This document shows, one piece after another, positions 29,379-64,000 of a stretch of 64,000 nt of DNA. Within the stretch, counting starts at the first letter, position 1, and each line of letters opens with the position of its first letter. The notes below the pieces were generated by a model. The model saw nothing but the letters and a program-made list of their open reading frames with translations, was not told where the DNA came from and made no database searches. Both the position numbers and the translations under genes were made by a program. The DNA is from a virus (taxonomy: Duplodnaviria > Caudoviricetes), in the IMG/VR virus record IMGVR_UViG_2788500220_000014, positions 1 through 64,000 of that record, one strand, 5' to 3'.

Positions 29379-29651
29379 TTAGCCGGCGTTGAATTCTTCC
29401 GGCAATTCGAAGGGGTCGACCACATGCCGCACGTCCTTCAGTGTTCGTCGTTGATATGTGTGTGACCAATCAGCATGTGACCCGGGTACTAGTGCAACCA
29501 GACTTTCACCTGGCTGCGCATGTTTAGAACATACTGAGCTATAAGCTTCATCTCTATTTGGAGAGGCGTTGATGTTCACGACACGCGCGGGGGAAGAGCT
29601 AACTTCCGATACAAAAACTGCTGTGTACATTTTGATTGGGCTCATAATCAT
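29379..29651 (-). CDS. Hypothetical protein
   Basis: ORF in the early block. Confidence 0.55.
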   Translation of the reverse strand: MIMSPIKMYTAVFVSEVSSSPARVVNINASPNRDEAYSSVCSKHAQPGESLVALVPGSHADWSHTYQRRTLKDVRHVVDPFELPEEFNAG

Positions 29652-29740
29652 ATTCTCAATTCATGAAGTACTTGAAGTAAATTGTAAAAACTCAATCGTT
29701 ACTTCGCGACTTTTCCTTCCCTTGGTCCAGGACAAAAGGT

Positions 29741-29775
29741 GGCGGGTGGGACCGACCAAGGAAACCCCACCCGCC
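29741..29775 (-). terminator. 10-bp GC hairpin (terminator/processing-like) after the RadA-like gene, loop GUUUCCUUGGUCGGU
   Basis: GGCGGGTGGG / CCCACCCGCC perfect stem, followed by ACCTTTTG on the minus strand. Confidence 0.65.
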
Positions 29776-29805
29776 GGCGATTCGAACGAATCACCATAAG
29801 GTGAC

Positions 29806-30555: not shown

Positions 30556-30614
30556 TTTTTCTTCCTTGGTCAGGTTTAGGAGTTGGGAACCATTCCCCCC
30601 TTCCTTATGTATCC

Positions 30615-30645
30615 ATTATACAATATTGTGGCAGATTTTGCACGA
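30615..30645 (-). promoter_or_regulatory. Early-type promoter
   Basis: GTGCAA aatctgccacaatattg TATAAT. Confidence 0.85.
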
Positions 30646-30671
30646 ACTTGCATGTCGAATAGTCATTTTTT

Positions 30672-30920
30672 TTACTTTTTTTGTGCTTTATTTAGGGCAC
30701 CCATGATGGCCAGGGAGATGTTAGAGGCCTCAGGAGATGCAGTCTTGGGGGTAGGGTTAGCCATAAGCTGTACCGATCCCGTCCCTGGATCCATGTCTAG
30801 ATGACCTGACCAGTACCCCTCGATGACTACCTGGTAGATAAATCCAGGATTATTGGGGTCTAGACCTCGTGTTTTTAGCTCAGCCTGGACCCATTGATTT
30901 GCTTTAGGTGTCAACTTCAT
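30672..30920 (-). CDS. Hypothetical protein
   Basis: ATGA overlap with the vWA gene. Confidence 0.6.
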   Translation of the reverse strand: MKLTPKANQWVQAELKTRGLDPNNPGFIYQVVIEGYWSGHLDMDPGTGSVQLMANPTPKTASPEASNISLAIMGALNKAQKK

Positions 30921-32308
30921 GCTGCCTTCTTCCCCTTCATCTGAATGAGGAAGTCCCGCTTCGAAGCTTCGAAGTAGAGCTTCCGGTCAGGGGTAATTAC
31001 CCATCCTCGCTTAAGGATCGAAGGACCCGGGTCACAACACTCACCATCAGTGAGGATCAAGTACCCATCAAACCGATGACGATTCTTATTTGCATGTACC
31101 GTTGCAGCCCTAAAATCAGTACCACCATAGCGAGTACGTTCCATTCCAGGTGCCCGATTCCGTCCCCACTCCCGCTCGGAGCTTTCATCAACCTCTGTAT
31201 CAAAGTTAAAGATGGTGAACTTCGTCTTCTTGGCCAACTGCTTAAGCTCACCAAAGAGAAGGGAGAGATCCTCATCACTAACCGATCCACTCTGATCGAT
31301 GTATACTGCGATTGAAGAGGTGTAGCCCTTTTGAAACCCGGGATGTACACCAGGATACTTGCGGTGGATCCGCCGGACGTTGCTAGCGCGGTTGGCGCGC
31401 CGGGTCATTCCGCAGAACTTCTTAAGGACTGACTGCCAGGGAATCTCCTTGGAAATCAACTCTCGAATCATTGACTGGCCAGAAGCACCAACCGAACCCC
31501 ATTGGCCGGACTGGTCACACTTCTTAACAGCATCTTCAACTGCCTGCTTGACCTTGCCCTTAATAAGCTCACGATCCTCATCGGAAAGCTCATCCCAACC
31601 ATCATGGCTATCCATGGTACCTGGCAATCCAGGAGCCGGTTGTCCCTGACCAGGTTGACCAGGTTGACCATCACCAGGCTGACCCTCACCCTCACCGTCA
31701 CCAGGCTGACCTGGTGCAGGGGCAGGATTAGTCAATGCTTCCTGAACTTCATCATCAGCCATCAACTCGGCGAAATACCATTCGGCTGACTTTTCCTTGG
31801 GGAAGGATGCAATCTTTGCAGAGACTGTCTCAAACTGCTTGACCCTATCCGGTCCCATTGCGATCTTATCAGCCTCGCTCAGAGCCTTGAACTCCTTACC
31901 AGGTACCAAGCCACCCTCAGGCAACTCTTCCTCTGGAATCAGGCTGTTGATTGCAAGGTCAGTAGCGTAGTTCCAGACCAGGTGAGGCTCGTGGCGTCGT
32001 GTCGTGGTGTGTTCGAACACCAGGTGGTAACACTCATGCTTAAGGAGACCCTTAATGTGCTTCGAAGGGAGCGCAGCAACAAAACGTGGGTTGTACCACA
32101 TCTTGATATCACCGTCCTTGGCCAGGACACCGGCAGTGGGAATCGACTCCGACCGTACCTTGGTGATCTGACGAAGGATGTGGCTAAAGAATGGCTCCTC
32201 CCAAAGAAGATTAATCAGATGGGGATCAAGCTCAAATGCCTTAGCGGCAGCCTCAGAGGCGCGCTGCGTGTGGGCAAGTTCCGTGGATGTGGTGTCGTTT
32301 TTAGCCAT
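30917..32308 (-). CDS. vWA domain-containing metallopeptidase-like protein (DUF2201 type)
   Basis: HECYH (HExxH), WNYATDLAIN, G/Q/P linker, IDQSGS MIDAS, GGTDF, LTDG. Start placed at ATG 32308, downstream of promoter 32336-32366. Confidence 0.88.
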   Translation of the reverse strand: MAKNDTTSTELAHTQRASEAAAKAFELDPHLINLLWEEPFFSHILRQITKVRSESIPTAGVLAKDGDIKMWYNPRFVAALPSKHIKGLLKHECYHLVFEHTTTRRHEPHLVWNYATDLAINSLIPEEELPEGGLVPGKEFKALSEADKIAMGPDRVKQFETVSAKIASFPKEKSAEWYFAELMADDEVQEALTNPAPAPGQPGDGEGEGQPGDGQPGQPGQGQPAPGLPGTMDSHDGWDELSDEDRELIKGKVKQAVEDAVKKCDQSGQWGSVGASGQSMIRELISKEIPWQSVLKKFCGMTRRANRASNVRRIHRKYPGVHPGFQKGYTSSIAVYIDQSGSVSDEDLSLLFGELKQLAKKTKFTIFNFDTEVDESSEREWGRNRAPGMERTRYGGTDFRAATVHANKNRHRFDGYLILTDGECCDPGPSILKRGWVITPDRKLYFEASKRDFLIQMKGKKAA

Positions 32309-32335
32309 GGCCATTCCTTCCTTCCTTATAGTACT

Positions 32336-32366
32336 ATTATACCCTATAGAGGCGGATTTTGCACGA
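32336..32366 (-). promoter_or_regulatory. Early-type promoter
   Basis: GTGCAA aatccgcctctataggg TATAAT. Confidence 0.85.
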
Positions 32367-32434
32367 ACTTGCATAACATTATTAATTATTTTGTATCGTC
32401 CTAAGCCCTTGATATTATTAAGGTTTTTAGGCAA

Positions 32435-32710
32435 TTAAATAGCCTGCAACATGCTCAATGGGACGTCCCAATTCTGACCATGTCCGACACTACAAATAGC
32501 CTTTTTTCGTTTAACCCGTACGATGACGCCCTCCGTGTAACCATTCCGGCCAGTCCAGGATACCTTATCACCGGCATGTAGCGTACGACGCTTGACTGCA
32601 GATTGTCTATCTCGGATTGACCTGAGGTGTTCAAGCACTGATCCATTAAGATCACGTAGCTGTCGGTCATCAAGGGTGTGGAGGTTGTTAATCATATCTG
32701 TGAGTGTCAT
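32435..32710 (-). CDS. Small protein with C-terminal SH3/KOW-like module (LHAGDKVSW)
   Basis: GAGGA RBS; GDKV...GVIVRV...WDVP. Confidence 0.75.
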   Translation of the reverse strand: MTLTDMINNLHTLDDRQLRDLNGSVLEHLRSIRDRQSAVKRRTLHAGDKVSWTGRNGYTEGVIVRVKRKKAICSVGHGQNWDVPLSMLQAI

Positions 32711-32757
32711 CTTGTCCTCGATCTAGTTAGCCAGGATGATCCCCAACCAACATGTAT

Positions 32758-32788
32758 ATTATACAATAGAGTTCGTAACTTTACACGA
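32758..32788 (-). promoter_or_regulatory. Early-type promoter
   Basis: GTGTAA agttacgaactctattg TATAAT. Confidence 0.85.
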
Positions 32789-33133
32789 ATTAGCTAAAGA
32801 AACCACCATAATATAGCAAGCCAATCATTAGTGGCAAATCTATAAATAGTGTAAGGGGTGCATTGTAATTGCCTTTCGGCTCACCGTGCTTAAGCAATGC
32901 TGCTGTAGTGTTAAAGGCTATAAGACAAATCATAATGATCTGGGGAATTCCCATTTTCTTCTCCTAGTAATGTCTATCGTTTTCAATTTTCATACCATGA
33001 TACACACCTAATGCATATGCCATGGCTACAAATAATAGGCCTATAATAACTGCTAGCATTTCCTTTCCTGAAATGCGAGGGGCGAACCTTAGCCAGCATT
33101 ACCTGTTACTAAGGCTGCACCCTCCTGGGTTCT

Positions 33134-34216
33134 TTAAACGTTTCGGCTAGCCTGAACTGCCTTGACGATAGTCTGACCAATCAGCTTGTGGATCTTCTGG
33201 ATGTTCGGCAACTTCTGGGTAGCCGAAATGGCATTCCAAAGGGAGACCATCATTTCACCAGGAAGACTCTCAGCGAAGGCAGCCACGTTCTTAGCCTGGC
33301 TAGCTGTCCACTCGTTATCTGTACAGTGGTTGGCCAACTTTTCAATCACCGCGTTGAGGCGATCGTTGGTCAGCTCCTTGACACGACCCTTAATGGAACC
33401 GTAGCTATCAAGGATGTCCTCGGCACTAACGATTGTCTCATAACCCTCGATGAAGGTAGTAAAGGCGATCGCGGCCTCGGTACCAACAAACCCCATCGCC
33501 GTAGCGTAGAATCCGTCGGCGCGCTTCTGGCCGGCCAGTTCGCTAGGAGCCATACCCATGTGGGTCAGCGAAGTAGCAAGGCGGTGCCATGAAGCGGGGT
33601 TCGGGCAAACCGTACCAGGCTCAACGCTACCAACGTCGACCCGGAGGTGCTGAGGATTCTGGCGGATGAAGTCAACAAGGACGTCATCAACGTTATTCTC
33701 ACCAGCCCAGTTGATCCAATCAGCTGCAGTAGGCTCGAGGTCACAGACCCAAAAGCGGCGAAGAAGTGCCGGGTCCATGTCGTTAACATCATATTCTGAA
33801 CCATGGTTGACAGCAGCAATCACCCGGGTCTGCGGGTGGAGGCGGTAAGGATTACCGTCCTTGTCGTTGCCAAGCTCTCGGTCCAGGACCAACTGGAAGA
33901 AAGACTGTTGGACGCCGGGGAGGGAGCGGTTAAGCTCATCCAGCATCAAAACAACAGGCTCTCGGCATGCCCGGATAAACCAGGATGGCATGCAGAAAGT
34001 CATGACACCATTTTCCTTCATACCCTCAAGATCAGGGTAACCACCAACATCACCTTCGGACATGGTAGAACCACGTACGTCGATAAAGGGCAGTCCAACG
34101 CTGTCCGCGACCTGCTTTCCGAGGAAAGACTTACCGACTCCGGTCGGTCCCCGCATGAGGATCGCGATGTCCGCGGGGAGGTTCGGGGCTACGATATTGA
34201 AAGTTTTGATGTCCAT
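33134..34216 (-). CDS. MoxR-type AAA+ ATPase (partner of the vWA protein)
   Basis: GPTGVGKS, LMLDELNR, AAVN, MDPALLRRF, NPASW. Confidence 0.9.
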   Translation of the reverse strand: MDIKTFNIVAPNLPADIAILMRGPTGVGKSFLGKQVADSVGLPFIDVRGSTMSEGDVGGYPDLEGMKENGVMTFCMPSWFIRACREPVVLMLDELNRSLPGVQQSFFQLVLDRELGNDKDGNPYRLHPQTRVIAAVNHGSEYDVNDMDPALLRRFWVCDLEPTAADWINWAGENNVDDVLVDFIRQNPQHLRVDVGSVEPGTVCPNPASWHRLATSLTHMGMAPSELAGQKRADGFYATAMGFVGTEAAIAFTTFIEGYETIVSAEDILDSYGSIKGRVKELTNDRLNAVIEKLANHCTDNEWTASQAKNVAAFAESLPGEMMVSLWNAISATQKLPNIQKIHKLIGQTIVKAVQASRNV

Positions 34217-34273
34217 TTTTTCTCCTTGGTCAAGAGGCTTGGAGGGCTAATCCCCTCCCCAACCTTCATATAT

Positions 34274-34304
34274 ATTATACCCCATGGGGAGGGAATTTGC
34301 ACGA
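34274..34304 (-). promoter_or_regulatory. Early-type promoter
   Basis: GTGCAA attccctccccatgggg TATAAT. Confidence 0.85.
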
Positions 34305-34327
34305 ACTTGCACAATTAATTATGCTTT

Positions 34328-34687
34328 TTAAAGTTCAATTTCTCCACCAAGCTCTTCCTCATCGGAAACGTCTTCCAAGAGGTCAAATGGCTCTTCACCG
34401 GATGGGATTCCCATTTCTGCCGGTACATCAGAGGTGGCGTCAAGTTCAGATTCAAAAGATTCACGTGCTGCAACTCGGGCAGCGTCGCGTGTTTCCTCAC
34501 AGTAGGCTCGAGCCAACTTTCCAACAGAGAATTCTGCAAGAGGATTGCTGAGATCCGCACTGGCCGATACCACCCAGGCAGCGCCACGGGTTGGTGCACT
34601 ACGACCGAAGAATAGCTTCCCAACCTTATACGGCTTCTTGTGGGTACGCTTAAGACCTGCAGTGTTTTCGTTACTTTGTTCAATCAT
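34328..34687 (-). CDS. Hypothetical protein with acidic C-terminal tail
   Basis: AAGGA RBS; tail DLLEDVSDEEELGGEIEL. Confidence 0.6.
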   Translation of the reverse strand: MIEQSNENTAGLKRTHKKPYKVGKLFFGRSAPTRGAAWVVSASADLSNPLAEFSVGKLARAYCEETRDAARVAARESFESELDATSDVPAEMGIPSGEEPFDLLEDVSDEEELGGEIEL

Positions 34688-52652: not shown

Positions 52653-52973
52653 ATGGGACTAATTGATGTATTGGCGCAACTTATTCCGGGCCTTGGTACC
52701 AGAGAACGAGAAAGATCAAAATTAGCTAAAGAAAATTTAGCACTTTCAGAAAAACTACTGCATGCAGAACAAAAAAATGCCGCCATGCTTCAAAAGTTGT
52801 TTCATGGTCGGCAAACACTAGAACAAGAAATTAATGATATGTATAGAATGTATGATGAAGGAGTACTTGATCGAATGCAGGATCCTGTAAAAGGCCTTGT
52901 CTGTCTATACACTCATATGGTTTGTTCACATCTTGGTTTCGAAAATCCGATACCTATTGAGTTTGATGCCTGA
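52653..52973 (+). CDS. Hypothetical coiled-coil protein (MGLIDVLAQL...)
   Basis: AAGGAG RBS; TATAAT just upstream. Confidence 0.65.
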   Translation: MGLIDVLAQLIPGLGTRERERSKLAKENLALSEKLLHAEQKNAAMLQKLFHGRQTLEQEINDMYRMYDEGVLDRMQDPVKGLVCLYTHMVCSHLGFENPIPIEFDA

Positions 52974-53117
52974 TTCATTTAATAGCTTTGCACGGTATAT
53001 TGAAAACTGTTGGTACGATTGGCCTCCCTGGACTAGTTCAAGCTCTTCATCGCTTAGTTCTGTTACATCTTTAAGATCTTCTTGTGCGGCCTGAGGCTTA
53101 TTTGTTTTCATCTTCAT
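52926..53117 (-). CDS. Peptide with double-glycine (bacteriocin/RiPP-type) leader
   Basis: TELSDEELELVQGG followed by a 31-aa basic core. Confidence 0.6.
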   Translation of the reverse strand: MKMKTNKPQAAQEDLKDVTELSDEELELVQGGQSYQQFSIYRAKLLNESGIKLNRYRIFETKM

Positions 53118-53349
53118 CTTCTTTTTGAGACTTTTTGCTCCACTTATCTTTGGGCATTAATTTTTCAATTCTGAAGCTTAAAGCTTTCATACCATTAACA
53201 GTAGGCTGTCCAAGGTCATCTACACCTATTTCTTTAACTGTTGTTCTTTTATTTTTAAAACGACCGGTAAGAATAATGTCACCCTTTTCTAAATCTAGCT
53301 CTAACATTTCCCTTATTATCATTCTTAATTGACGCTCAGTAGTCTTCAT
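53098..53349 (-). CDS. Leader-array gene (MKTTERQLRMIIRE) with SH3-like payload
   Basis: Shared leader; LEKGDII motif. Confidence 0.75.
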   Translation of the reverse strand: MKTTERQLRMIIREMLELDLEKGDIILTGRFKNKRTTVKEIGVDDLGQPTVNGMKALSFRIEKLMPKDKWSKKSQKEDEDENK

Positions 53350-53872
53350 TGTGGTGCCTAATTGTAAGAGCATGTTCCAATGATTGCTCAAGTTCTTTAG
53401 TAATCCCTGTCAGAGCGTTGTATATTGCACCTAGTACTTTAGGGTCGGGCTCACCATGTGGACCAGCATATCCGAGCTCTGCTACAAGGTCCATTATTTG
53501 TTGATATGCATCCTCATACGTAGTCTGATCTGCACCATCGTAGCCATATGGCCCTTTTTTGAGCTCTTCTTTGATATTTTTAATACGCCTGGAATATTGC
53601 TTAATTGCATTTTCAGCAGCATAAAGGTACGGGCGGCTATAGTCTTTAGCAGGCATGCCCTCTTTTTCCCTAATACTATCTATATCATTTCGAAGTGAAA
53701 GAAGATCTTCTATAGAGACATTAATATCATCGCTAGCGCCCATGGGACTAAGAAGCTGACCGTTTATAAAAGACACCAGCCTATCTTCACGCGATTCAAG
53801 ACTTTGAAGGCTTGGCATGCCCACCATCGATTCTCTAATAATTTTCCTAAGCTGTCGTTTTGTAATCTTCAT
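53336..53872 (-). CDS. Leader-array gene (MKITKRQLRKIIRES)
   Basis: Shared leader. Confidence 0.8.
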   Translation of the reverse strand: MKITKRQLRKIIRESMVGMPSLQSLESREDRLVSFINGQLLSPMGASDDINVSIEDLLSLRNDIDSIREKEGMPAKDYSRPYLYAAENAIKQYSRRIKNIKEELKKGPYGYDGADQTTYEDAYQQIMDLVAELGYAGPHGEPDPKVLGAIYNALTGITKELEQSLEHALTIRHHNEDY

Positions 53873-54169
53873 TTACCTGCGGTTCCTTGTTGCCGGTGAA
53901 GTATGATGTTCTTCAGGGGGAATGGTCTTAGACTGCCTAACTTCTCTAGCGACAACCTCTAGAGCATGTGCAATACTCTCAACATATATAGGATTAATCC
54001 ATACATCTTCGCCGATCATATCCTGAGAAAATTCTTCCTCGATGTAGTTCCAAACTCCATTTTGTACGCCACGTGAGATGCCCTCTTCAACATCCGGGCT
54101 CATCTCAGAAAGAAGGCGCGCTTTCTCTTCTTTAATGATTCTTCTTAGTTGTCTCTTTGTGGTTCTCAT
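53873..54169 (-). CDS. Leader-array gene (MRTTKRQLRRIIKEE)
   Basis: Shared leader. Confidence 0.8.
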   Translation of the reverse strand: MRTTKRQLRRIIKEEKARLLSEMSPDVEEGISRGVQNGVWNYIEEEFSQDMIGEDVWINPIYVESIAHALEVVAREVRQSKTIPPEEHHTSPATRNRR

Positions 54170-54210
54170 AATGTTATTTCCTTAAGTCCCGGTGCATCCC
54201 AACTGGGTGG

Positions 54211-55005
54211 TTACCGGCCTGCTGCCCGGGTGAAAATCTTGATTATCTCTGATAGCGCATGCGCTTCTTCATCATTGGCCGGAGGTTCATAAAAATAATA
54301 TTCTCCGATCCACCGAGTTCCGTGTGGGCCTGGAGAAGGGGAGACAGCTTCGGCCATGGCTAAAATAATCTTGAGTACCCCTACCTGGGTCGGCTCCGGC
54401 GGATCCTCTGGTAAATCTTTACTGAAACTGCCACCATAACCTTCGGTGCTCATAGTATATTCAACGGCTTTAGAGATGTACCCTAGAATTCCACTGGCCC
54501 CATGTCGCTCTAAAACATCCTGGTATCGGTTATCCTGAGGGCCTTTGAATGCTTTATGAAGATGAAAATCGAATTGCCTTGCAGTTGCTAGATCTGTCTG
54601 ATATTGATCCACATCAGCCTTGCCGCGTCCAGAATCCCACCAGCTCCCCTTGAACCATGCAGGTGTAGATATACTCTTCCTACCCTTCTTCCTGCCCTTC
54701 TTCCTGCCCTTCTTCCGAGGAAGAGTGGCAGCCAAAGTATCTAACCAGCCTGGTTGATTATTGGATATCCAGTCTAATTGTTCATCCCAATCCAGGTCTT
54801 GTTCATATCCCGGGATTTTTTCCCATAAACCTGCATTAACTAAGTCATCTGCCAAAGCATTAGCGCCGTCGGTCATTGAATGCATATCCGATATTTCATC
54901 ATACTTTGCATATAACCTATCATATGCTGGCCCGCCACCCTCTGAAATGACCCGGGCCACTTCTTCTTTAATGATTCTTCGCAGTTGGCACTTGGTAATT
55001 TTCAT
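54211..55005 (-). CDS. Leader-array gene (MKITKCQLRRIIKEE) with an internal RKKG x3 repeat
   Basis: Shared leader; 12-nt tandem repeat at about 54676-54717. Confidence 0.8.
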   Translation of the reverse strand: MKITKCQLRRIIKEEVARVISEGGGPAYDRLYAKYDEISDMHSMTDGANALADDLVNAGLWEKIPGYEQDLDWDEQLDWISNNQPGWLDTLAATLPRKKGRKKGRKKGRKSISTPAWFKGSWWDSGRGKADVDQYQTDLATARQFDFHLHKAFKGPQDNRYQDVLERHGASGILGYISKAVEYTMSTEGYGGSFSKDLPEDPPEPTQVGVLKIILAMAEAVSPSPGPHGTRWIGEYYFYEPPANDEEAHALSEIIKIFTRAAGR

Positions 55006-55406
55006 TATACTTTATCCCTTTTCGAAAGTACTGATACTCCAATTGCAGAATATATTTCCGGACCTACATGGTGATTAACTTGTTTAAGCTTTATACCCTG
55101 CCAATTAATCGGGGGCTCCAAATAATCAGTCGGAGGAAGTGCTGCACCCTCCGCTTTTAAAGCTTTCCATGCTATGTCCCTATCAGACTTGTCATCAAAA
55201 ATAACCATGTTTCGAATAGAGAACATCGTTTGCCCGCCTTTGCCTCTTTCTGATCGTTGTCCGGATTTTGGAAGGTTATTTAGAGGCTGGCCACCAAAGC
55301 GGTCTGCTATAGCAACAGTTGCAGACCCTACATCCCATTGATTTTCTGAAAGCATTTCAAGTTCTTCTTTAATGATTCGCCTGAGTTGTCTTTGAGTAAT
55401 TTTCAT
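55005..55406 (-). CDS. Leader-array gene (MKITQRQLRRIIKEE)
   Basis: Shared leader; ATGA overlap. Confidence 0.8.
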   Translation of the reverse strand: MKITQRQLRRIIKEELEMLSENQWDVGSATVAIADRFGGQPLNNLPKSGQRSERGKGGQTMFSIRNMVIFDDKSDRDIAWKALKAEGAALPPTDYLEPPINWQGIKLKQVNHHVGPEIYSAIGVSVLSKRDKV

Positions 55407-56389
55407 TTTAAAATCCCAGCCAACCTTTGCCATTTTTCGATAAGTAGATCATCCCTGGTTTTTCTTGACTCTGTTTTTGTTGCATTTCCAAGAGCATTTC
55501 CAAGAGCAGTAAGAAACTTAAGTGTGCGTTTCTCATCACCAAGAGATTGTAGATCAACTTGTCCTGCAGTGCCTAGTGATGCTGAAGGATCGTTCAACAT
55601 CGTTGCTGCCCACCGATGATGGCCATCAAGGATCTCTCCGTTCGTACCTGCCCAAGCATCTAGATCACCCCCTGCAATTTGGTTTTTTGGGTTCATTGCC
55701 ATCCCTAGGGCCTTGTATATAAGAATATTTGATTGGGTTGGTATAGCATCGCTTGCAGGAACTGATCCACCCTTAACAACCTTGATATCATCATCATCTT
55801 TATTCCCATCATTTTCTTCATGGCCGGATGTCATAAATTCTTTAGATTCAGCGTCATCCATACCTACAAATGTATTGGGCGCAGGAGGTACATTAAACTT
55901 TCCCCTCTTAAGATTTACTTTTCTTTCCTTAAGGGCCCTGATGTTTGATACATCATTCTTTTGGACGGCTTCATTGTGTGTGTCAATATTAAACTTGCCT
56001 CCAGGCGAAAGAGCATCAACTACTTGATCGACTGAACCTTTGGCATCTTCCGGGCCAGGAAGAAACGGCATGACAGACTTAGGTAATCCAGAAGTTGGTA
56101 TTTTTGATGCCAACGTTTTGATTCTAGAAGCAACTTCCTCAGGTCCAATTTTTTCTACCCACTCCTTTGCCTGTGCACCGTTAGTAGCGAACCACTGGCC
56201 TTGAGTTGATTTAACAATTGGGGCATTATCATCTCCGGAAAGTAGCTGATTTACTATTTCGATTGGGTCAACATCTTTAACATTTGTTGACTTATCAACT
56301 GCGTCGCCCCGAGGAGCATCACCAATTTTACCGGTTGATTTCTCCTCTTCTTCAAATAAGATACTTACTAAGCTTGGAATTTTTTTCAT
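55403..56389 (-). CDS. ParB/Srx-like domain protein embedded in the leader array
   Basis: AIPTQSNI...ILDGHHRWAA ParB-N motif; C-terminal EKWQRLAGIL. Confidence 0.78.
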   Translation of the reverse strand: MKKIPSLVSILFEEEEKSTGKIGDAPRGDAVDKSTNVKDVDPIEIVNQLLSGDDNAPIVKSTQGQWFATNGAQAKEWVEKIGPEEVASRIKTLASKIPTSGLPKSVMPFLPGPEDAKGSVDQVVDALSPGGKFNIDTHNEAVQKNDVSNIRALKERKVNLKRGKFNVPPAPNTFVGMDDAESKEFMTSGHEENDGNKDDDDIKVVKGGSVPASDAIPTQSNILIYKALGMAMNPKNQIAGGDLDAWAGTNGEILDGHHRWAATMLNDPSASLGTAGQVDLQSLGDEKRTLKFLTALGNALGNATKTESRKTRDDLLIEKWQRLAGILK

Positions 56390-56859
56390 CCTGATGTCCT
56401 CATCGGTCCTTCAATTATTTCATTTAAAAATGCCACAAAATTCTTAGCACTTTTCTTATCGTGGATGCTAAGTGCTTTTTTATCATCGACATATATTTCC
56501 ATGGTCAGACCATCCCATGTCCACGCAGCCTTAATATTACCAATCCCGATTATGTCCTCTTCCCTAACTGGATCCCGCGGGCCAGATTGTTCTTTTTTCT
56601 TTTTGCCCCAAAACTCAGATAATTTACGAATTTCTTCTTTAATAAGTGCAGAAGGATCATGACGGCGCATACCAGAATCCCACCTAACCGAAATTTGCCT
56701 GTCTCTTTTATTTGATTTTGCAACAACACGGCCAACACCAAGGTGCGCATCGTCCTTATGGCGAACGATATCACCTACCGTGATGTTAAACGTAGGCCTA
56801 GACTCTGAGAATAATTCTTCTCTAATAATCTTTCTTAGTTGATGCTTGGTAATTTTCAT
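56386..56859 (-). CDS. Leader-array gene (MKITKHQLRKIIREE) with SH3-like payload (ITVGDIVRH)
   Basis: Shared leader plus a second LIKEEI..LSE internally. Confidence 0.8.
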   Translation of the reverse strand: MKITKHQLRKIIREELFSESRPTFNITVGDIVRHKDDAHLGVGRVVAKSNKRDRQISVRWDSGMRRHDPSALIKEEIRKLSEFWGKKKKEQSGPRDPVREEDIIGIGNIKAAWTWDGLTMEIYVDDKKALSIHDKKSAKNFVAFLNEIIEGPMRTSG

Positions 56860-56860
56860 C

Positions 56861-57205
56861 TTACCATTCTCCGGTGTCATTGCCATCTTCATCTAGCATT
56901 ACAGCATATTCTTCAAGCTCTTCATATGTTGTAGCCATAGTAGTAGAAAAACTATTCGGATATTCATCAGATGCAGCAGCTGACATTATATGGCCATACC
57001 AATAGCGGAACGCCCTGGCTTCAATCGACCTATCTGGTACTAGCTTGGTAATCTCGAGCGCTTCTTCTGTTAGTACTTGAATCTCTTGCATGATATCCTT
57101 AAATCGATATAGATCATTCTCATCTAGGCCCTCAAATTGCTCTTTAAGAATACGAGATTTTTCCTCACGAATTATTCTTCTTAACTGTCGTTTTGTAATT
57201 TTCAT
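56861..57205 (-). CDS. Leader-array gene (MKITKRQLRRIIREE)
   Basis: Shared leader. Confidence 0.8.
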   Translation of the reverse strand: MKITKRQLRRIIREEKSRILKEQFEGLDENDLYRFKDIMQEIQVLTEEALEITKLVPDRSIEARAFRYWYGHIMSAAASDEYPNSFSTTMATTYEELEEYAVMLDEDGNDTGEW

Positions 57206-57507
57206 TATCGTAACCCAAACTCTATAAGCTCTTCAGCATCATCAATAATCGTGCCAAGATAATCTGACAACTCTGGGAACAGTTCATAAAGAGATTCTTC
57301 CACCTCTTCGCGATCGCCTCCACCCTTAAAGATATTAACAGCTGTATCCCTGGCTTCCATTTCTATGTCCATGATCTTGGGTTCCCAGCCACCCTCAGGT
57401 TCTCCATACATGGTACCATCATGTGGATTAGCCTCACGATCAATAAAGAAATCTTTCTCAATAGTTTCCTTGATGATTCTTCTTAGTTGCTTTTTTGTAA
57501 TTTTCAT
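57205..57507 (-). CDS. Leader-array gene (MKITKKQLRRIIKET)
   Basis: Shared leader. Confidence 0.8.
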   Translation of the reverse strand: MKITKKQLRRIIKETIEKDFFIDREANPHDGTMYGEPEGGWEPKIMDIEMEARDTAVNIFKGGGDREEVEESLYELFPELSDYLGTIIDDAEELIEFGLR

Positions 57508-57508
57508 T

Positions 57509-58297
57509 TTAAAGTTCCCTGTATATATCTGCTAATGCTTGCTTCAAATACTTTCGGCCATTTTCCCCTAGCTCAGCAAATAATTGCGATAAAATCTCCT
57601 TTACAGAATCCTTATTGTTCGCTGCGTCAATAGCAACTAGAAGAGGTTGTACGCCACTTTTATCTAGTGCAATGTCTGCTTTTTTTCCTGCAGCAGTCTT
57701 TGATTCTGCACCGGCATCAGCAGAAGCTTCATCTTCAGGATTTTCTTTAAGAATTTCTTCTCTAATAATTTGCCGTAAGCGGCTTTTCGTTATATTCATT
57801 GCTTTATTCTCCCATTGTCTTTGTGCACTTTTTGTTTTTAGACGTTTACCCATTCCAGATCTCTGAGGTACTTTTTCATAGTCTAAATCTAATCCAGGTA
57901 CCTGTAGGGCTGCTAGCTCCTGTCGCTCTTTTTCCCACTCTGCTTCACGCTCAGCATTAAATGCATCATCTTCTGCCATAGCTTCAGCTTCACGATCTAA
58001 GTCATCAATCGCCGCTTGAACTTGTGCGACTGTCTCAAACCTTGCCCAACGTGGTCGGATACCATGAAGCGATTTGAATGCGTCTGAGTACGTCTGAGAT
58101 AAGATCTCAAAGGCTAACTCTTCTCCAGTTGTAATACCTCTCTCTTCCCAAAATGACTGATCTGTAACAAGGGTCATACCATATAATCCTGGGCCAGCTT
58201 GGGCATTAATTTTCTCAGCTTCTTCCTGTGCAGTAGGTGCAAAGCCTGACATAGCTTCACGAATTATCTTCTCTAGTTTTTTGCGACTAATTCTCAT
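57509..58297 (-). CDS. Leader-array gene with two leader copies (MRISRKKLEKIIRE; internal MNITKSRLRQIIREE at 57799)
   Basis: Seen in the translation. Confidence 0.8.
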   Translation of the reverse strand: MRISRKKLEKIIREAMSGFAPTAQEEAEKINAQAGPGLYGMTLVTDQSFWEERGITTGEELAFEILSQTYSDAFKSLHGIRPRWARFETVAQVQAAIDDLDREAEAMAEDDAFNAEREAEWEKERQELAALQVPGLDLDYEKVPQRSGMGKRLKTKSAQRQWENKAMNITKSRLRQIIREEILKENPEDEASADAGAESKTAAGKKADIALDKSGVQPLLVAIDAANNKDSVKEILSQLFAELGENGRKYLKQALADIYREL

Positions 58298-58306
58298 GTT
58301 ATCATC

Positions 58307-59683
58307 CTAATCATAATATGGCATCATCGGTGGACCCTGGGGCGGCCGGCGGCCCAAGGTTTTTCCTGCTCTTCTGTTCAGGAAGTCTAAAAATTTTGGA
58401 ACATCAATCTGATCTTTTGGAACAGCCACCTCACCAACACCATGTGATATACTATCTGGTGCGGAAAGCCTTATATACCTCTTATACTCTTTCCATCCTA
58501 GGGTCTTTAAATCCTCAGGGGTGACCGTGGATGTAAAATGGTTTGCCAATAGTTCTAGCCATTCTTTATCTGGGTCAGATGTTATAGCACTACTTTGTCG
58601 AGCTTTTTCTATTTTCCACGCTTCATTTTCTATTGCATCAGTGTCACGACGTGTCACACCATTGCTGTACAATAGATCTGCTAGTTCACTATCATCTAAA
58701 AATACTGGTAAATCAGACCACCCAAATATTGGCAATAATATCTCTGCAGCCTCCTTATATTTTTTTGCTTTGGCAAGTGGAACTACGACAGCTGCAATTT
58801 CATCATCACTATTCTTTGCAGTAAGGGTTTCATTAATGATCCCTGCTATCTTTAAAATCCTATTATATGAAGCGGCAATCGTTTCTTTAGCAGGATCTTC
58901 ACCTGATATCCATTCTCCATATTTCTTAATATATTTTGAGACTCCGTTGCTAATTCCTGTGTATACTGTATCAGCAACAATATCCTTGAATATCTGTTTA
59001 CTAGGCCGGCTATTACCATACCCAAAACTATAAGAGCTCTTATTTTCATCTGGCAACGAGCTATATAAATCCGCAACTTCCTTACTGTCAGCCCACTCGG
59101 TATAGCCTGATGCGATATCTGCTGAGGCATCTTGCCCGTATTGAAGCACATAATCTCCGGGGCTATCCCATTGTTGGTAGCTGCTTCCATCTTGCCACAT
59201 CTTAGGATTATTATAGGCATCATGCATAGTATCCATGGCCCAATCTTCTCCGCCGGCTTCAGCATCATTCAATATTTTTTCTTTGAGAGCTTCATATTTT
59301 TCTTCAGCTTCTTCTTCCTGGCGCTTTTCTTCAGCTTCAGCTTCATCTTCCCTGGCAAAATGCGCATCCCAGTCGTAGTCGGGATCTGACTCATCTGTAA
59401 TCGGGCCTTTTTCTTCAGGCTCTATATACCACTGACTGTCTGGGTACCACTCTTGCTCTTCCATGGATTCACCAGCTGGAATCATCATTTCAAATGATTC
59501 CGGATCTTCAACATCTGTCTCTACCTGATCACCTGGTTCGAGCTCATCCAAGAACATCTCCATATCAGCAGTCGTTTGAAATTCTGGAACAGTATATCCT
59601 GCATCATACTCTTTAAGAAGTCTTTTTGCACGGATCACTTCTTCCTTGATGATTCTTTTCAGTTGTCGTTTTGTGATTTTCAT
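58307..59683 (-). CDS. Large acidic leader-array gene (MKITKRQLKRIIKEE) with internal NRILKIAGIINE
   Basis: GAGGA RBS before ATG 59683. Confidence 0.8.
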   Translation of the reverse strand: MKITKRQLKRIIKEEVIRAKRLLKEYDAGYTVPEFQTTADMEMFLDELEPGDQVETDVEDPESFEMMIPAGESMEEQEWYPDSQWYIEPEEKGPITDESDPDYDWDAHFAREDEAEAEEKRQEEEAEEKYEALKEKILNDAEAGGEDWAMDTMHDAYNNPKMWQDGSSYQQWDSPGDYVLQYGQDASADIASGYTEWADSKEVADLYSSLPDENKSSYSFGYGNSRPSKQIFKDIVADTVYTGISNGVSKYIKKYGEWISGEDPAKETIAASYNRILKIAGIINETLTAKNSDDEIAAVVVPLAKAKKYKEAAEILLPIFGWSDLPVFLDDSELADLLYSNGVTRRDTDAIENEAWKIEKARQSSAITSDPDKEWLELLANHFTSTVTPEDLKTLGWKEYKRYIRLSAPDSISHGVGEVAVPKDQIDVPKFLDFLNRRAGKTLGRRPPQGPPMMPYYD

Positions 59684-59981
59684 TATATTCCTCTTCCGGT
59701 ATGCTACTTTCGACGTCATCAGCCAAGCCACGGAGGTCGGCAGCTAACTCATGCCATTCCGACGGATTCGTTTGATCCATTGCTTGATTTATTATGTCAG
59801 CAAGGGTATGCCATAGTGGTTGATCATAAGAGCGGCCTTTAATCTTAACGCTTGAAAGGCTTCCTCGTTGAGCATCCATCTTTGCTGCTGCGATCCCCAT
59901 ATCAGCAGGAGTCATTTCATTTATTAGCTTAGAATGTTCTTCTTTAATGATTCTTTTTAATTGTCGTTTTGTGATTTTCAT
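59613..59981 (-). CDS. Leader-array gene (MKITKRQLKRIIKEE)
   Basis: Shared leader; 3' end runs ~70 nt into the next gene in another frame. Confidence 0.78.
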   Translation of the reverse strand: MKITKRQLKRIIKEEHSKLINEMTPADMGIAAAKMDAQRGSLSSVKIKGRSYDQPLWHTLADIINQAMDQTNPSEWHELAADLRGLADDVESSIPEEEYNENHKTTTEKNHQGRSDPCKKTS

Positions 59982-60736
59982 TAGTCTAACCTTACGTCAA
60001 TAATATCTGGCACCATACGCTTAAGTTCTCGTAAACCAGCTGGATACATACTTCCAGGCATCTCAACTACTATGTCGATTGCCGTACCGTTATCACCTAG
60101 TTCCATTACAACACCTGACATTTCGTCACCAGGTTGTATTCCGCCATATTCATCTTCATAATCTTCCCATGCATCGAAGCCCATATAGAATGTACCACTG
60201 CTTGGGCTGTAGCCAAGATAAGACTCCTGCCCTTCGCTATATCCGGATCGTTGAAGATACTGCCAGGCCTCACCAACACCGGGGCCCTCATAAAATACCT
60301 GATATACGTTTACTCCATCAACCATTACACCTTCAGGCCAGGCGGCACTAACTTGTTCTTCGGTAACATCTGGATCCGTAAGTTCGGCCGTGATACCACT
60401 CATATTACTTTCAGAAAGCCCTTCTTCTGATTCTGCAGCTGCCTTAAGGGCAGCTTTAGCTCTTGCGCGCCGGGTTTCAGAAGCTTTTCGGGCCCGATAA
60501 TCCGCGGGGGACTCATCACCATACGGATTTTCTCGGCCGTAATAGTCAGCCTGTCTCTCGTTCCGGGTCCGTTGCGCTTTACGTGCACGATAGTCTGCTG
60601 GAGACTCGTCACCATATTCGTTGTCAGGGCCATGGAGTCGATCGTTTAATCTTCTTTGAGCCTCAGGTGAACGTTCAACAAGTCTTGAGATCTCTTCTTT
60701 GATTATTCTTCTTAGTTGTTTTTGTGTAATTTTCAT
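59981..60736 (-). CDS. Leader-array gene (MKITQKQLRRIIKEE) with duplicated YGDESPADYRARKA
   Basis: Shared leader; ATGA overlap. Confidence 0.8.
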   Translation of the reverse strand: MKITQKQLRRIIKEEISRLVERSPEAQRRLNDRLHGPDNEYGDESPADYRARKAQRTRNERQADYYGRENPYGDESPADYRARKASETRRARAKAALKAAAESEEGLSESNMSGITAELTDPDVTEEQVSAAWPEGVMVDGVNVYQVFYEGPGVGEAWQYLQRSGYSEGQESYLGYSPSSGTFYMGFDAWEDYEDEYGGIQPGDEMSGVVMELGDNGTAIDIVVEMPGSMYPAGLRELKRMVPDIIDVRLD

Positions 60737-61179
60737 TCTTTCTGCATCCACTCGTCCCCCCAATCGAGGTCGTCCATCCATGAGTCATCGCCGGCGTCTT
60801 CGTCGTCTTCGTCGTCATCAAAGGTCCCAAGAGCCAATAGGCTATCCCTTAGGTCAGCTGGAGCAGACCCATCATCTATAGCCCAATTAATCTCATCCTC
60901 TACATCGGTGGGATCAGGGCTGCCATCATCAGTCATTTGATCAATACGTTGAGATAGAGGGTGATCTGGGCCCAATACATCCCTTATGTCTTCCCACATA
61001 TAGTCAACAGTGTCAGTCCGGCTCTCATACTGTTCCCAATGTGCATCGGCAGCCAGAAAATAAGGGTGCCTCTTCGGCTTCTTCTTCTTTTTGTTTTTCT
61101 TTTTCTTTTTCTCAATTAGAATATTTCTAGAAATTTCTTCCTTGATGATTCTTTTGAGTTGGCTCTTTGTGATTTTCAT
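60733..61179 (-). CDS. Leader-array gene (MKITKSQLKRIIKEE), poly-Lys then very acidic
   Basis: Shared leader. Confidence 0.8.
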   Translation of the reverse strand: MKITKSQLKRIIKEEISRNILIEKKKKKNKKKKKPKRHPYFLAADAHWEQYESRTDTVDYMWEDIRDVLGPDHPLSQRIDQMTDDGSPDPTDVEDEINWAIDDGSAPADLRDSLLALGTFDDDEDDEDAGDDSWMDDLDWGDEWMQKE

Positions 61180-61457
61180 AGTCTTATCCCCAGGTTCCGA
61201 GCGATTCTTTCAAGCATTCCCTCAAGTTCCTCCGAAGCATCCATTAAATCATAGTCATCGGTACCATATGCTTCTTGCAGTTTATCAGCAAACTCAAACA
61301 TTGCATTTAAAAAGCCCTTTGTCCCATCATGTAATCTCCAGTAATCCTCACCTGATACTGCCATGGACTCATTTTGAAGTGAGGCTCTCTCTTTTTTACG
61401 GTCGCTTGATATTTCTTCCTTGATGATTCTTTTCAGTTGTCGTTTTGTGATTTTCAT
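61176..61457 (-). CDS. Leader-array gene (MKITKRQLKRIIKEE)
   Basis: Shared leader. Confidence 0.8.
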   Translation of the reverse strand: MKITKRQLKRIIKEEISSDRKKERASLQNESMAVSGEDYWRLHDGTKGFLNAMFEFADKLQEAYGTDDYDLMDASEELEGMLERIARNLGIRL

Positions 61458-61458
61458 T

Positions 61459-61695
61459 TTAAAATCCTCCTGCCCTAATTGTATCTGCTATATCGCGATC
61501 TGGTATGCCCATTGCTCGACAGCGCTCAATGCATGCTGTGAGATCGTCTAACGCCTCGAGTTGATCTAGGCTTCGATTTACATATAACTCTTCATCGACG
61601 TCATTGTATTGTTCACCATAACGAGGGGCCTCTTTTAGCAATTTAAGCTTCTCTTCCTTAATGATCCGTTTAAGCTGTCTCTTGGTTATTCTCAT
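61459..61695 (-). CDS. Leader-array gene (MRITKRQLKRIIKEE)
   Basis: Shared leader at ATG 61695. Confidence 0.78.
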   Translation of the reverse strand: MRITKRQLKRIIKEEKLKLLKEAPRYGEQYNDVDEELYVNRSLDQLEALDDLTACIERCRAMGIPDRDIADTIRAGGF

Positions 61696-61696
61696 T

Positions 61697-61798
61697 CTAA
61701 CATTGCCCTTTACAGCTAGTGCAACCGCAACAACCGCAACAGCAACAACAATGACTGTCATTAAATAAATTTGCTAATCTGTGTAATACCTTTTTCAT
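61697..61798 (-). CDS. 33-aa Cys-rich peptide MKKVLHRLANLFNDSHCCCCCGCCGCTSCKGQC
   Basis: AAAGGAG RBS; fills the gap between two array genes; hand-translated. Confidence 0.7.
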   Translation of the reverse strand: MKKVLHRLANLFNDSHCCCCCGCCGCTSCKGQC

Positions 61799-61834
61799 TT
61801 TTAATCTCCTTTTATTGTTGATTGGTAACCTTCA

Positions 61835-62212
61835 TTATACCGGGGTTCCTTCAATTAACCATGTAAATAGATGCCATGGCTCACTTTCATTCCAGTATTC
61901 AGAATATCGATCAGCCCAATCTTCAAAAGCATCAGTAAAATCTTTATTAAGCGCTGCCTTATCTGGTGCGATTGTGCCAGATTCCAGGCCTGATATTACG
62001 TCGGTAAATTGGGATAGATCTCTCTTCATATCATCATACCATGTGGTTGACTTATCTTGTGGATTGATCTGTTCAAACCCATACATCTGATTAACAGTTT
62101 CGTGCCAGGTATCAGGCTCGCGAGGGCCCTGATATGGGTCGTCGACACTATCAAACCACGGGTCAAGTTCTTCTTTGATGATCTGCTTAAGCCGGCTTTT
62201 TGTAATCTTCAC
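61835..62212 (-). CDS. Leader-array gene (MKITKSRLKQIIKEE, GTG start)
   Basis: GGAGG RBS; shared leader. Confidence 0.78.
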   Translation of the reverse strand: MKITKSRLKQIIKEELDPWFDSVDDPYQGPREPDTWHETVNQMYGFEQINPQDKSTTWYDDMKRDLSQFTDVISGLESGTIAPDKAALNKDFTDAFEDWADRYSEYWNESEPWHLFTWLIEGTPV

Positions 62213-62213
62213 T

Positions 62214-62570
62214 TTAATATCCCTCCGGGCGGGCCCATGCAATTATTTCGTCATCCGACATATCTTGTGCCATTACACTCGATGCCTTTGCTGCGGCTAC
62301 AAATTTCCTTGAGTCTCTTTTTGCAAGAGAACCTGGTGAGATCGAAATATCCATCTCAGCAAAGTCTCTAAACCCTAATTCATATGCCATATGATCCAGG
62401 TCAAGTATTCCGATATCCAATGCCTCAGAAAACTCGTACCAATTGGAATCCTTTGGGGGATAGCCATTCACCGGTGATGGTGGGCCGTGCGTACCAGTTC
62501 GATACTCATTAACAATATGGGATACTTCTTCCTTGATGATCCGCTTAAGCTGTCTTTTGGTTATTCTCAT
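62214..62570 (-). CDS. Leader-array gene (MRITKRQLKRIIKEE)
   Basis: Shared leader. Confidence 0.8.
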   Translation of the reverse strand: MRITKRQLKRIIKEEVSHIVNEYRTGTHGPPSPVNGYPPKDSNWYEFSEALDIGILDLDHMAYELGFRDFAEMDISISPGSLAKRDSRKFVAAAKASSVMAQDMSDDEIIAWARPEGY

Positions 62571-62571
62571 T

Positions 62572-62991
62572 TTACCATGCTCCTGGTGTACCTTGAGGAA
62601 AACTGTATGCCTTACCATACTCATCTTGTTCATCGAGGATCATAATAATATCCTCAAATGATCGGAGACCAGGAAGAGTATGATCGTATGCAGGTAAATT
62701 AAACAGATTATGGCTTCGGGCCCAGCGTACAAACTCTGACATATCTGTAGGTTGTGGACTTAATTCATATTCAGGTGTACCATAATTCGGATGTAAAGAA
62801 ATTGTATAATCATCAACCACCTTGCCGGTGTCATCATATACGGTTACAGATGCCGCATCTTCACTCATGCCTCGATAGTTGAGGATGTCATATTCACTGT
62901 GCGCGCCGGCTGGAATGTTTGACGATTCGTGAAGGAGGCGGGATACTTCTTCTTTAATGAGCCGCTTAAGCTGTCTTTTGGTTATTCTCAC
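62572..62991 (-). CDS. Leader-array gene (MRITKRQLKRLIKEE)
   Basis: Shared leader and shared RBS ATAGGAGACAACACG. Confidence 0.8.
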   Translation of the reverse strand: MRITKRQLKRLIKEEVSRLLHESSNIPAGAHSEYDILNYRGMSEDAASVTVYDDTGKVVDDYTISLHPNYGTPEYELSPQPTDMSEFVRWARSHNLFNLPAYDHTLPGLRSFEDIIMILDEQDEYGKAYSFPQGTPGAW

Positions 62992-63002
62992 CGTGTTGTC
63001 TC

Positions 63003-63326
63003 CTATCGATACATATCGGGGTTTGATAATACGTCTTCTAACTCAGCAATCTTATCATCGATTGACATCATACCAAACTCAGAATCATTGACTGTAGTAG
63101 CACCCATTGCTCTTTCTGCTTCAAGCGCCTCGATTTGATCTGCCTCGAATCCCGGGGCAGAAAGTATCTTTCGGTCACCTATGATTACACCATCAAATGC
63201 TGTACCTGAACTATAAGTTACATTAACGACATTCTCACGCAGCTTACGCCGGACCTTGGCCTCAGCAATCAGCTTAGCCTTCTCTTCTTTGATTATTCGT
63301 TTAAGCTGTCTCTTGGTTATTCTCAT
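63003..63326 (-). CDS. Leader-array gene (MRITKRQLKRIIKEEKAKLIAE)
   Basis: Shared leader and RBS. Confidence 0.8.
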   Translation of the reverse strand: MRITKRQLKRIIKEEKAKLIAEAKVRRKLRENVVNVTYSSGTAFDGVIIGDRKILSAPGFEADQIEALEAERAMGATTVNDSEFGMMSIDDKIAELEDVLSNPDMYR

Positions 63327-63343
63327 CGTGTTGTCTCCTATGA

Positions 63344-63769
63344 CTATTGTATTCTATATACCGCATCTAAAGTTGAGTTGTCAACGTCAACCCAGTCACC
63401 ACCATCCCACATCATATATGCATCTGGGCCGGCGCTATATGGCGAGTTCATATCATCCCACCAGTGAACCAGCGTGCCATTAACAATAAAGAATTCAGAT
63501 TCTGATAATAGTTGATTCTGCGTTGGAACTTCAGTTTCGAAGTCCCCAGGGGAATGATCTGCACCTAATAGCCAATTCAAAAGATTTTTCTCTAACATCA
63601 TCATGGCATCTGGGAACATAGATCTAGCATCTTCTAACGTTACCTGTCTATTGCCCGGGGCATTCTCACATAATTTACGCCTGACCAATCGTCGGACCTT
63701 GGTCTCAGCAACCAGCTTGGCTTTTTCTTCTTTGATGATCCGCTTAAGCTGTCTCTTGGTTATTCTCAC
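63344..63769 (-). CDS. Leader-array gene (MRITKRQLKRIIKEEKAKLVAE)
   Basis: Shared leader and RBS. Confidence 0.8.
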   Translation of the reverse strand: MRITKRQLKRIIKEEKAKLVAETKVRRLVRRKLCENAPGNRQVTLEDARSMFPDAMMMLEKNLLNWLLGADHSPGDFETEVPTQNQLLSESEFFIVNGTLVHWWDDMNSPYSAGPDAYMMWDGGDWVDVDNSTLDAVYRIQ

Positions 63770-63912: not shown

Positions 63913-64000
63913 TTAAAATTCTAATTCAGAGGCCATTTGCTCTTCAGTTCCGATCAGGCCATTTGCTTCTAAGTTTGATATCAAATAAGCTAATGCTTCA
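63913..64000 (-). CDS. C-terminal end of a gene entering from beyond the window (...EALAYLISNLEANGLIGTEEQMASELEF*)
   Basis: Open frame from the window edge to TAA at 63913. Confidence 0.5.
   Translation of the reverse strand, partial: EALAYLISNLEANGLIGTEEQMASELEF

Follow-up and report, generated by a model that had tools for sequence, protein, structure and literature searches.

The shared N-terminus of a long run of small, mutually dissimilar phage proteins is probably a capsid-targeting propeptide of the bacteriophage T4 type, forming part of a hugely expanded system in a large T4-like phage. The genes lie on the minus strand of IMG/VR virus record IMGVR_UViG_2788500220_000014 (Duplodnaviria; Caudoviricetes), positions 1 to 64,000 of which were analyzed and are referred to here as the window. 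This window covers the initial 64 kb of contig C25, which belongs to an assembly of 4.9 Mb in 33 contigs in which the phage was co-assembled with a complete bacterial genome. Between 53,098 and 63,769 the minus strand carries 21 close-set genes, accompanied by the 3' end of another tag-like gene (63,913-64,000). The leader M(K/R)ITKRQL(K/R)RII(K/R)E was found in 21 copies in 20 of these genes, all on the minus strand between 53,349 and 63,769. Twenty copies are N-terminal and one is internal, at residue 167 of the open reading frame (ORF) 57509-58297, which is also N-terminally tagged; the internal copy keeps its Met.

Alignment of the 21 copies showed that M1, L8, I12 and E14 are invariant and that I3, T4 and I11 are nearly so. 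A similar pattern was observed in 458 unique environmental copies (L8 98%, I11 93%, I12 97%, E14 98%). A [LIV]-x-E motif ends at residue 14 in 20 of 20 N-terminal leaders, in each case as I-(K/R)-E at residues 12-14, which fits the L/I-x-E motif of the T4 prohead protease gp21 within a short N-terminal propeptide; a second [LIV]-x-E, ending at residues 21-25, is present in 13 of the 20. Both the leader on 20 of 22 consecutive minus-strand genes and the frequent second sites had been described in a first-pass annotation of this DNA, and both descriptions hold. One array member had been taken as leaderless. This 328-amino-acid (aa) gene (55403-56389) indeed lacks the canonical tag, but it retains a degenerate one, SLVSILFE, with unchanged spacing, and it has orthologues with the full KITKR.L..II.EE leader upstream of it; because of these orthologues, all 21 complete array genes count as tagged or descended from tagged genes. 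The leftmost gene is tagged as annotated, with its start at an internal ATG (53349) and not at TTG 53391. When a leader hidden Markov model was run against a six-frame translation of the whole 4.9-Mb assembly, its matches were confined to the array and a single C16 gene. When a stricter core motif was required among the first 22 residues, 22 of 173 genes of contig C25 had it, compared with 1 of 567 host genes. The leader pattern is far beyond chance, and the genome-wide scan proposed earlier places it exclusively on phage contigs.

The conserved positions of the leader can be set against the known targeting sequences of T4 (NC_000866), in which IPII and IPIII begin with MKTYQEFIAE, gp24 with MAKINELLRE, Alt with MELITELFDE and gp22 with MLKEQLIAE. 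The T4 internal proteins are directed to the core by propeptides of 10-19 residues, gp21 cleaves after L/I-x-E, and residues 4 and 7 of the targeting sequence mainly drive targeting while residues 8 and 10 drive processing (PMC9026906). Counted from the cleaved Glu, these residues stand at -6, -3, -2 and 0, and L8, I11, I12 and E14 of the leader stand at the same offsets. The best-conserved leader positions thus match the mapped functional residues of the T4 sequence one-to-one. The likeness to the T4 sequence suggested in the first-pass annotation is borne out by this equal spacing and by the fit of I-K-E14 to L/I-x-E.

A second tag type, M(K/N)LLREYIRELL, was detected on about ten larger proteins, at 93-101 kb of contig C25 (region 89.9-100.7 kb) and on contig C16 beyond 30.5 kb, as well as on a small protein of the structural contig C13 (17027-17272). 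MKLLREYIRE and T4 MKTYQEFIAE are identical at M1, K2, E6, I8 and E10 (5/10), with Y for F at position 7, and the hydrophobic, targeting positions are occupied by L4 and Y7. The larger proteins include two enzymes, a nucleotidyltransferase of the CCA-adding/poly(A)-polymerase family and an RNase T-like exonuclease. The earlier estimate of about 20 proteins was too low for the phage, in which the tagged genes number about 40 and fall into two or more tag types; the tag is also clade-wide.

The same motif was observed in the head module. Contigs C25 and C6 share a 99-mer end, and the end of C6 lies inside C13. Positions 1-30500 of C16 duplicate C25 70229-100728 (30.5 kb, 99.9% identity) before C16 runs on, which could reflect either two phage variants or a long terminal or internal repeat split by the assembler. 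Contig C13 contains a one-strand run of large structural genes, including those for a gp23-type major capsid protein, a T4-type portal and a Peptidase_S77 prohead protease (PF03420, 94 bits). The enzyme shares 32% identity with T4 gp21, the catalytic motifs GE.(D/N)HP (His) and SSRG.GS (Ser) align between the two, and it matches the gp21 crystal structure (PDB 5JBL, E=1.5e-16), so that the gp21-like enzyme which the first-pass annotation had proposed to look for is present. C25, C6, C13 and C16 together form a large T4-like phage, and C25 is not bacterial chromosome; a chromosomal island of the bacterium was considered and rejected, since the contigs are linked to one another and phage core genes are present. 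Downstream of the protease, a 136-aa protein starts with MAKLSRSQLKSIVKECLVE and a 95-aa protein contains KLTPKMLRRLVLEE, and TPKIRRMIERE is found close to the N-terminus of a 620-aa scaffold-like protein (net charge -55) whose gene immediately precedes that of the capsid protein. The motif, which the first-pass annotation had proposed to look for on scaffold or major capsid propeptides, thus occurs on two small protease-adjacent proteins and on the scaffold-like protein, an arrangement that parallels the tag-like N-termini of T4 scaffold and core proteins.

Beyond this phage, a degenerate DNA pattern for the leader identified 69 stretches on IMG/VR contigs of up to 293 kb and a few contigs binned into bacterial metagenome-assembled genomes, including one of 306 kb. 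Five near-complete relatives (267-293 kb) all encode the S77 protease (5/5) and have 17-39 tagged genes each, mostly in arrays. These five share the order portal, ~280-aa protein, protease, ~120-180-aa protein, ~137-aa protein and ~92-aa protein. Both small protease-flanking proteins keep their motif-bearing N-termini in 5/5 relatives examined, and in one relative a small head-module protein has the N-terminus MAKITKRMLKGIVKE, which is almost the array leader. The IMG/VR stretches yielded 266 distinct tagged proteins that fell into 170 payload clusters, and a few payloads of the window have tagged homologues among them, for instance that of 53873-54169, with 71% identity to a protein of IMG/VR locus L037 that bears the leader. 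A search of 1.84 billion representative proteins with the leader profile returned 8,024 clusters at E<=0.001. Among the 8,024, the best 144 (~2%) have two or three tag-plus-payload units per ORF, with the internal tags keeping their Met. Such fusions would be expected to be tolerated if the protease cuts each tag, which is an expectation and not proof. In named phages, nine weaker leader matches were found in a 484-kb record and one in Flavobacterium phage immuto, while none were found in Mel-JY01, RM378 or a 595-kb phage. The immuto 3-5A (MW353176.1) protein immuto35A_190 (L095, 2645-3403) begins with MKKSQLRQIIKE, the core of the tag, and the scaffold-like gene 203 of this phage begins with MSNKDLLKQAIAE, much like T4 gp22.

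Taken together, these findings suggest a pathway in which the hydrophobic face of the leader (I3, L8, I11, I12) would dock the precursors onto the very acidic scaffold or core of the prohead, and in which the gp21-type serine protease would cut after Glu14 (I-K-E). About two thirds of the proteins would be cut again, behind the second [LIV]-x-E near residue 22. Cleavage would free the unrelated payloads inside the head. Core binding, cleavage and packaging are all inferred from sequence; more speculatively, the payloads may be ejected together with the DNA and have an early role in the host cell, such as countering its defence systems. In T4, IPI blocks GmrSD and IPIII is required on some strains (PMC9391042).

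Several observations weigh against this interpretation. The [LIV]-x-E motif is short and of low information, and the i, i+3, i+4 spacing of hydrophobic residues is usual for any amphipathic helix; for both reasons the match to T4 could be partly generic. The tag is strongly basic (+5), unlike that of T4, and the payloads are mostly acidic whereas T4 internal proteins are basic, with lysines that contact DNA phosphates. The array is distant from the head module, the leader helix was modelled at low confidence (pLDDT, the predicted local distance difference test, of ~58 in the AlphaFold2 model of the 118-aa member), and no virion proteome of any tagged member was found in the literature. The co-occurrence of the tag with S77 in the relatives is expected from common ancestry and is not independent support. 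Finally, the only ATATTTA, a putative promoter motif described below, that stands ahead of the array is 42 nt upstream of the start of the 266-aa gene, and this motif is not specific to structural genes.

Some of these points are shared by the main rival explanation, in which a basic amphipathic helix, common to a large family of small host-takeover proteins, serves some purpose unrelated to the virion, such as oligomerisation or the binding of a common partner (nucleic acid, membrane, or a host or phage complex), and is neither a packaging signal nor cleaved. The computed properties of the leader (hydrophobic moment 0.64, net charge +5) and its generic helical spacing suit such a role, the payloads resemble many early phage proteins in being small, acidic and uncharacterised, and the array occupies a region of small accessory genes remote from the head genes. 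We nevertheless consider this explanation rather unlikely, as it does not account for a Glu14 as invariant as the hydrophobic positions, for the motif on the protease-flanking proteins (also in 5/5 relatives) and the scaffold-like protein, or for a second tag type nearly equal to the T4 targeting sequence.

The genes of the array, all on the minus strand, are as follows, with the basis of each entry in brackets.

53098-53349, minus strand: leader gene, 83 aa, with the variant tag MKTTERQLRMIIRE and its start at the internal ATG 53349 (ORFs, leader scan).
53336-53872, minus strand: leader gene, 178 aa, acidic payload (ORFs, payload isoelectric point, pI).
53873-54169, minus strand: leader gene, 98 aa, whose second site, L-S-E, is at residue 22 (site scan).
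54211-55005, minus strand: leader gene, 264 aa (ORFs, leader scan).
55005-55406, minus strand: leader gene, 133 aa (ORFs, leader scan).
55403-56389, minus strand: conserved 328-aa member, degenerate tag SLVSILFE ending at residue 13, C-terminal DGHHRW (orthologues, model).
56386-56859, minus strand: leader gene, 157 aa, basic payload (payload pI).
56861-57205, minus strand: leader gene, 114 aa (ORFs, leader scan).
57205-57507, minus strand: leader gene, 100 aa, very acidic payload (payload pI).
57509-58297, minus strand: two-unit ORF, 262 aa, tagged at the N-terminus and again at residue 167 (DNA of the internal copy 57755-57799; leader scan).
58307-59683, minus strand: leader gene, 458 aa, payload net charge -48 (charge calculation).
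59613-59981, minus strand: leader gene, 122 aa (ORFs, leader scan).
59981-60736, minus strand: leader gene, 251 aa (ORFs, leader scan).
60733-61179, minus strand: leader gene, 148 aa (ORFs, leader scan).
61176-61457, minus strand: leader gene, 93 aa (ORFs, leader scan).
61459-61695, minus strand: leader gene, 78 aa (ORFs, leader scan).
61835-62212, minus strand: leader gene, 125 aa, GTG start (leader scan).
62214-62570, minus strand: leader gene, 118 aa, comprising the leader helix, a disordered indel-prone linker and a confidently modelled 70-residue helical domain (orthologues, AlphaFold2).
62572-62991, minus strand: leader gene, 139 aa, GTG start (leader scan).
63003-63326, minus strand: leader gene, 107 aa, second site L-I-A-E, like T4 F-I-A-E (site scan, T4 N-termini).
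63344-63769, minus strand: first canonical leader gene by transcription direction, 141 aa, GTG start (leader scan).
63913-64000, minus strand: 3' end of the 266-aa gene heading the array (contig C25 63913-64713), with the tag-like N-terminus SINQLRKFIKE (motif scan).

Directly downstream of the array, a 63-aa ORF on the minus strand (52926-53117) has the look of a double-glycine-type leader (ELSDEELELVQGG) as in precursors of bacteriocins or ribosomally synthesized and post-translationally modified peptides (RiPPs); its overlap with the end of the final array gene is 20 nt, and it may be spurious.

The payloads, taken as the sequence after residue 17, are 63-443 residues long, have a pI of 4.0-5.5 in 17 of 21 cases, and show no pairwise BLASTP similarity at E<=0.01, the exception being a 17-residue extension of the leader common to the two rightmost genes. 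The mostly acidic and mutually dissimilar payloads noted in the first reading of the sequence are thereby confirmed. No family was assigned to the array proteins in Pfam or PHROG (ten scanned per library, in Pfam the six largest and four smaller ones), and among these no homology to IPI, IPII, IPIII or Alt was observed. Likewise, 150 multi-tag metagenomic representatives gave next to nothing in Pfam, and the 458-aa payload (58307-59683) had neither a family match nor a usable fold match in the ESM Atlas. The modular build is seen in the 118-aa member, seven orthologues of which show a leader with invariant I3, I12, E14, E15 and E22, a linker with large indels and a well-conserved domain. In its AlphaFold2 model, a helix spans residues 5-26, residues 22-34 have a pLDDT below 50, and a helical domain at residues 43-112 reaches 81-92; Foldseek returned no significant fold match for this domain. 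Together, the orthologue alignment and the model place the leader outside any common domain, as what is most probably a separate helix linked to the payload. An integral part of one shared fold, named in the first-pass annotation as an outcome that would count against it, was thus not what the indel-prone linker indicates. The 328-aa member folds well in its model (pLDDT 85), and the best structural matches to residues 204-300, which contain DGHHRW, were all of the ParB/sulfiredoxin fold and weak (Z 2.5-4.0), so a ParB/sulfiredoxin-like fold in this C-terminal part is suggestive only. Two other readings of the N-terminus were rejected: a RiPP precursor family, given payloads of 63-443 residues and a folded domain in the one modelled, and a Sec or Tat signal, given the lack of a hydrophobic core in the leader. 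No modifying-enzyme domain was seen by Pfam in the six largest and four smaller array proteins.

Payloads that are extremely diverse, without known domains and mostly acidic like scaffold fragments would also fit tagged proteins that are loaded into the head without being effectors, serving as stuffing or core (head size, balance of charge or pressure, an inner body) with sequences that drift freely. The T4 core proteins gp67, gp68 and gp22, which have similar N-termini, are structural (PMC5694885). This seems quite improbable to us, since specific functions are indicated both by payloads that form well-folded conserved domains with 60-72% identity across many contigs and by the nucleotidyltransferase and RNase T-like exonuclease among the second-tag proteins.

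Conservation of the leader was also examined at the nucleotide level. Leu8 is encoded by five codons and the Ile positions by all three; the mean number of nonsynonymous substitutions per site (dN) between copies is ~0.15, and the synonymous value (dS) is saturated (>1). With synonymous sites saturated, amino acids fixed and Leu8 written in five codons, selection on the leader therefore acts at the peptide level and not at the DNA level. The three rightmost cassettes do have identical upstream sequence (CATAGGAGACAACACG), and their leader DNA and that of the next one (62570) are very similar; Repoila and colleagues reportedly proposed in 1994 that recombination at conserved tag DNA underlies the polymorphic internal-protein loci of T-even phages. 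A repeat maintained mainly as DNA or RNA, as a substrate for cassette-shuffling recombination or as a translation-initiation element encoding a functionless peptide, is nonetheless very hard to credit in view of the saturated synonymous sites across 21 copies and a peptide conserved in 8,024 clusters, and cassette shuffling may happen as a consequence rather than a cause.

Regarding the genomic context, the nearest named relatives of the capsid protein were a 484-kb uncultured phage, Microcystis phage Mel-JY01 and Flavobacterium phage immuto (~37-42% identity). Among 50,697 phage records, none matched the array in a Megablast search, and tblastn with one array member gave no tag-only matches. 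No spacer-like match connected the phage contigs to the remaining contigs, leaving no host link. The T4 late promoter TATAAATA was not enriched, sigma-70-like promoter sites in the array were at chance level, and no minus-strand terminator was found within it. A 7-mer, ATATTTA, was enriched about 8-fold within 60 nt upstream of start codons on contigs C13, C6 and C25 (23 observed compared with 3 expected) and is a candidate phage promoter element; it precedes several tail, baseplate and head genes and also non-structural genes, and is thus uninformative on timing.

Elsewhere in the window, a transfer-messenger RNA gene (4159-4521, minus strand; tag peptide ANNNDNFEYALAA) was found on the phage contig. 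Genes for a PrkA kinase, SpoVR and DUF444 (YeaH-like), a bacterial trio associated with stress and sporulation, are adjacent at 8084-12562 (minus strand), in that order in plus-strand coordinates and with very strong Pfam matches. Contig C25 also encodes a PIN-PhoH fusion (1222-2529) and a 403-aa protein (2933-4144, minus strand) with a weak match to the Tubulin/FtsZ GTPase family (30.8 bits, cut-off 33) that may be a phage tubulin. The G+C content is 0.47-0.51 at window positions 28000-34500 compared with 0.33-0.44 elsewhere, and this segment contains a MoxR-type AAA_5 ATPase (33134-34216) and a DUF2201 metallopeptidase/VWA protein (30917-32434). In the assembly, ten contigs (C1, C4, C7, C15, C21-C24, C29 and C33; ~360 kb) have a G+C content of 0.43-0.46 compared with 0.37-0.38 in the host, and may represent contamination, a different phage or a further replicon.

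If the tag functions like its T4 counterpart, sequence alone would suffice to list the packaged, and probably injected, proteins of a whole clade of uncultured giant phages, amounting to ~10% of their genes, and thousands of unannotated families would be catalogued. T4 counterparts form a first line against host defences, and the tagged catalogue would therefore be an obvious source in which to search for new counter-defence functions. As a possible, though doubtful, extension, the more than 8,000 clusters may represent address-labelled proteins that are pre-loaded by widespread uncultured marine T4-like giant phages and injected before gene expression begins, making up a very large, hitherto unseen library of first-response anti-defence and takeover effectors that includes RNA-repair enzymes, with arrays that evolve by gain, loss and fusion of cassettes and a head protease that resolves the fusions. 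A capsid-targeting role would also show how far T4 loading scales and that fused cassettes can be tolerated, and the short portable tag could serve to load proteins into phage heads in laboratory phage-host systems. Since the cultured relative immuto has a protein with the tag core, the idea is testable at the bench.

Short amphipathic helices with a flexible linker also address cargo into the shells of encapsulins and bacterial microcompartments. Those peptides are not removed by a maturation protease, the shells contain no DNA, and encapsulin tags are usually C-terminal. Among phages, phiKZ, 201phi2-1 and SPN3US are likewise giant, they too encode a gp21-related protease, their paralogue families vary in size, and in the phiKZ/SPN3US type many head-internal proteins are cleaved after Glu (PMC5694885, PMC9026906). 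Their propeptides are mostly longer than 100 residues, with the motif S/A/G-x-E and full-length homology, whereas here only a short tag is common and the capsid protein is T4-like and not phiKZ-like. A processed paralogue family of the phiKZ/SPN3US type was accordingly rejected, as the payloads are dissimilar, the tag has 14 residues and I stands at -2. The targeting sequence has already been suggested as a means for T4-like phages to load varied proteins (PMC9026906, PMC3012670). Literature searches on capsid targeting in giant or metagenomic phages found only work on T4 and SPN3US, and no paper describing the tag, the arrays or their scale was found; while the principle is known from T4, these three features appear to be new.

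The closest counterpart is the IPI/IPII/IPIII/Alt system of T4, which shares with the present one a short N-terminal tag on unrelated proteins that ends in L/I-x-E with equal spacing, similar N-termini on scaffold and core proteins, a homologous S77 protease, tagged genes away from the head module and a cargo set that differs among relatives. The T4 internal proteins are unrelated to one another, and homology of the payloads does not define the mechanism; no homology to a T4 internal protein was seen in the array proteins scanned. The tag has 14 residues, or up to 22 with the second site, compared with 10-19 in T4. The tagged genes stand in tight tandem arrays, some of their payloads are enzymes or reach 458 aa, and they number about 40 in this phage and 17-39 in its relatives, compared with about four in T4.

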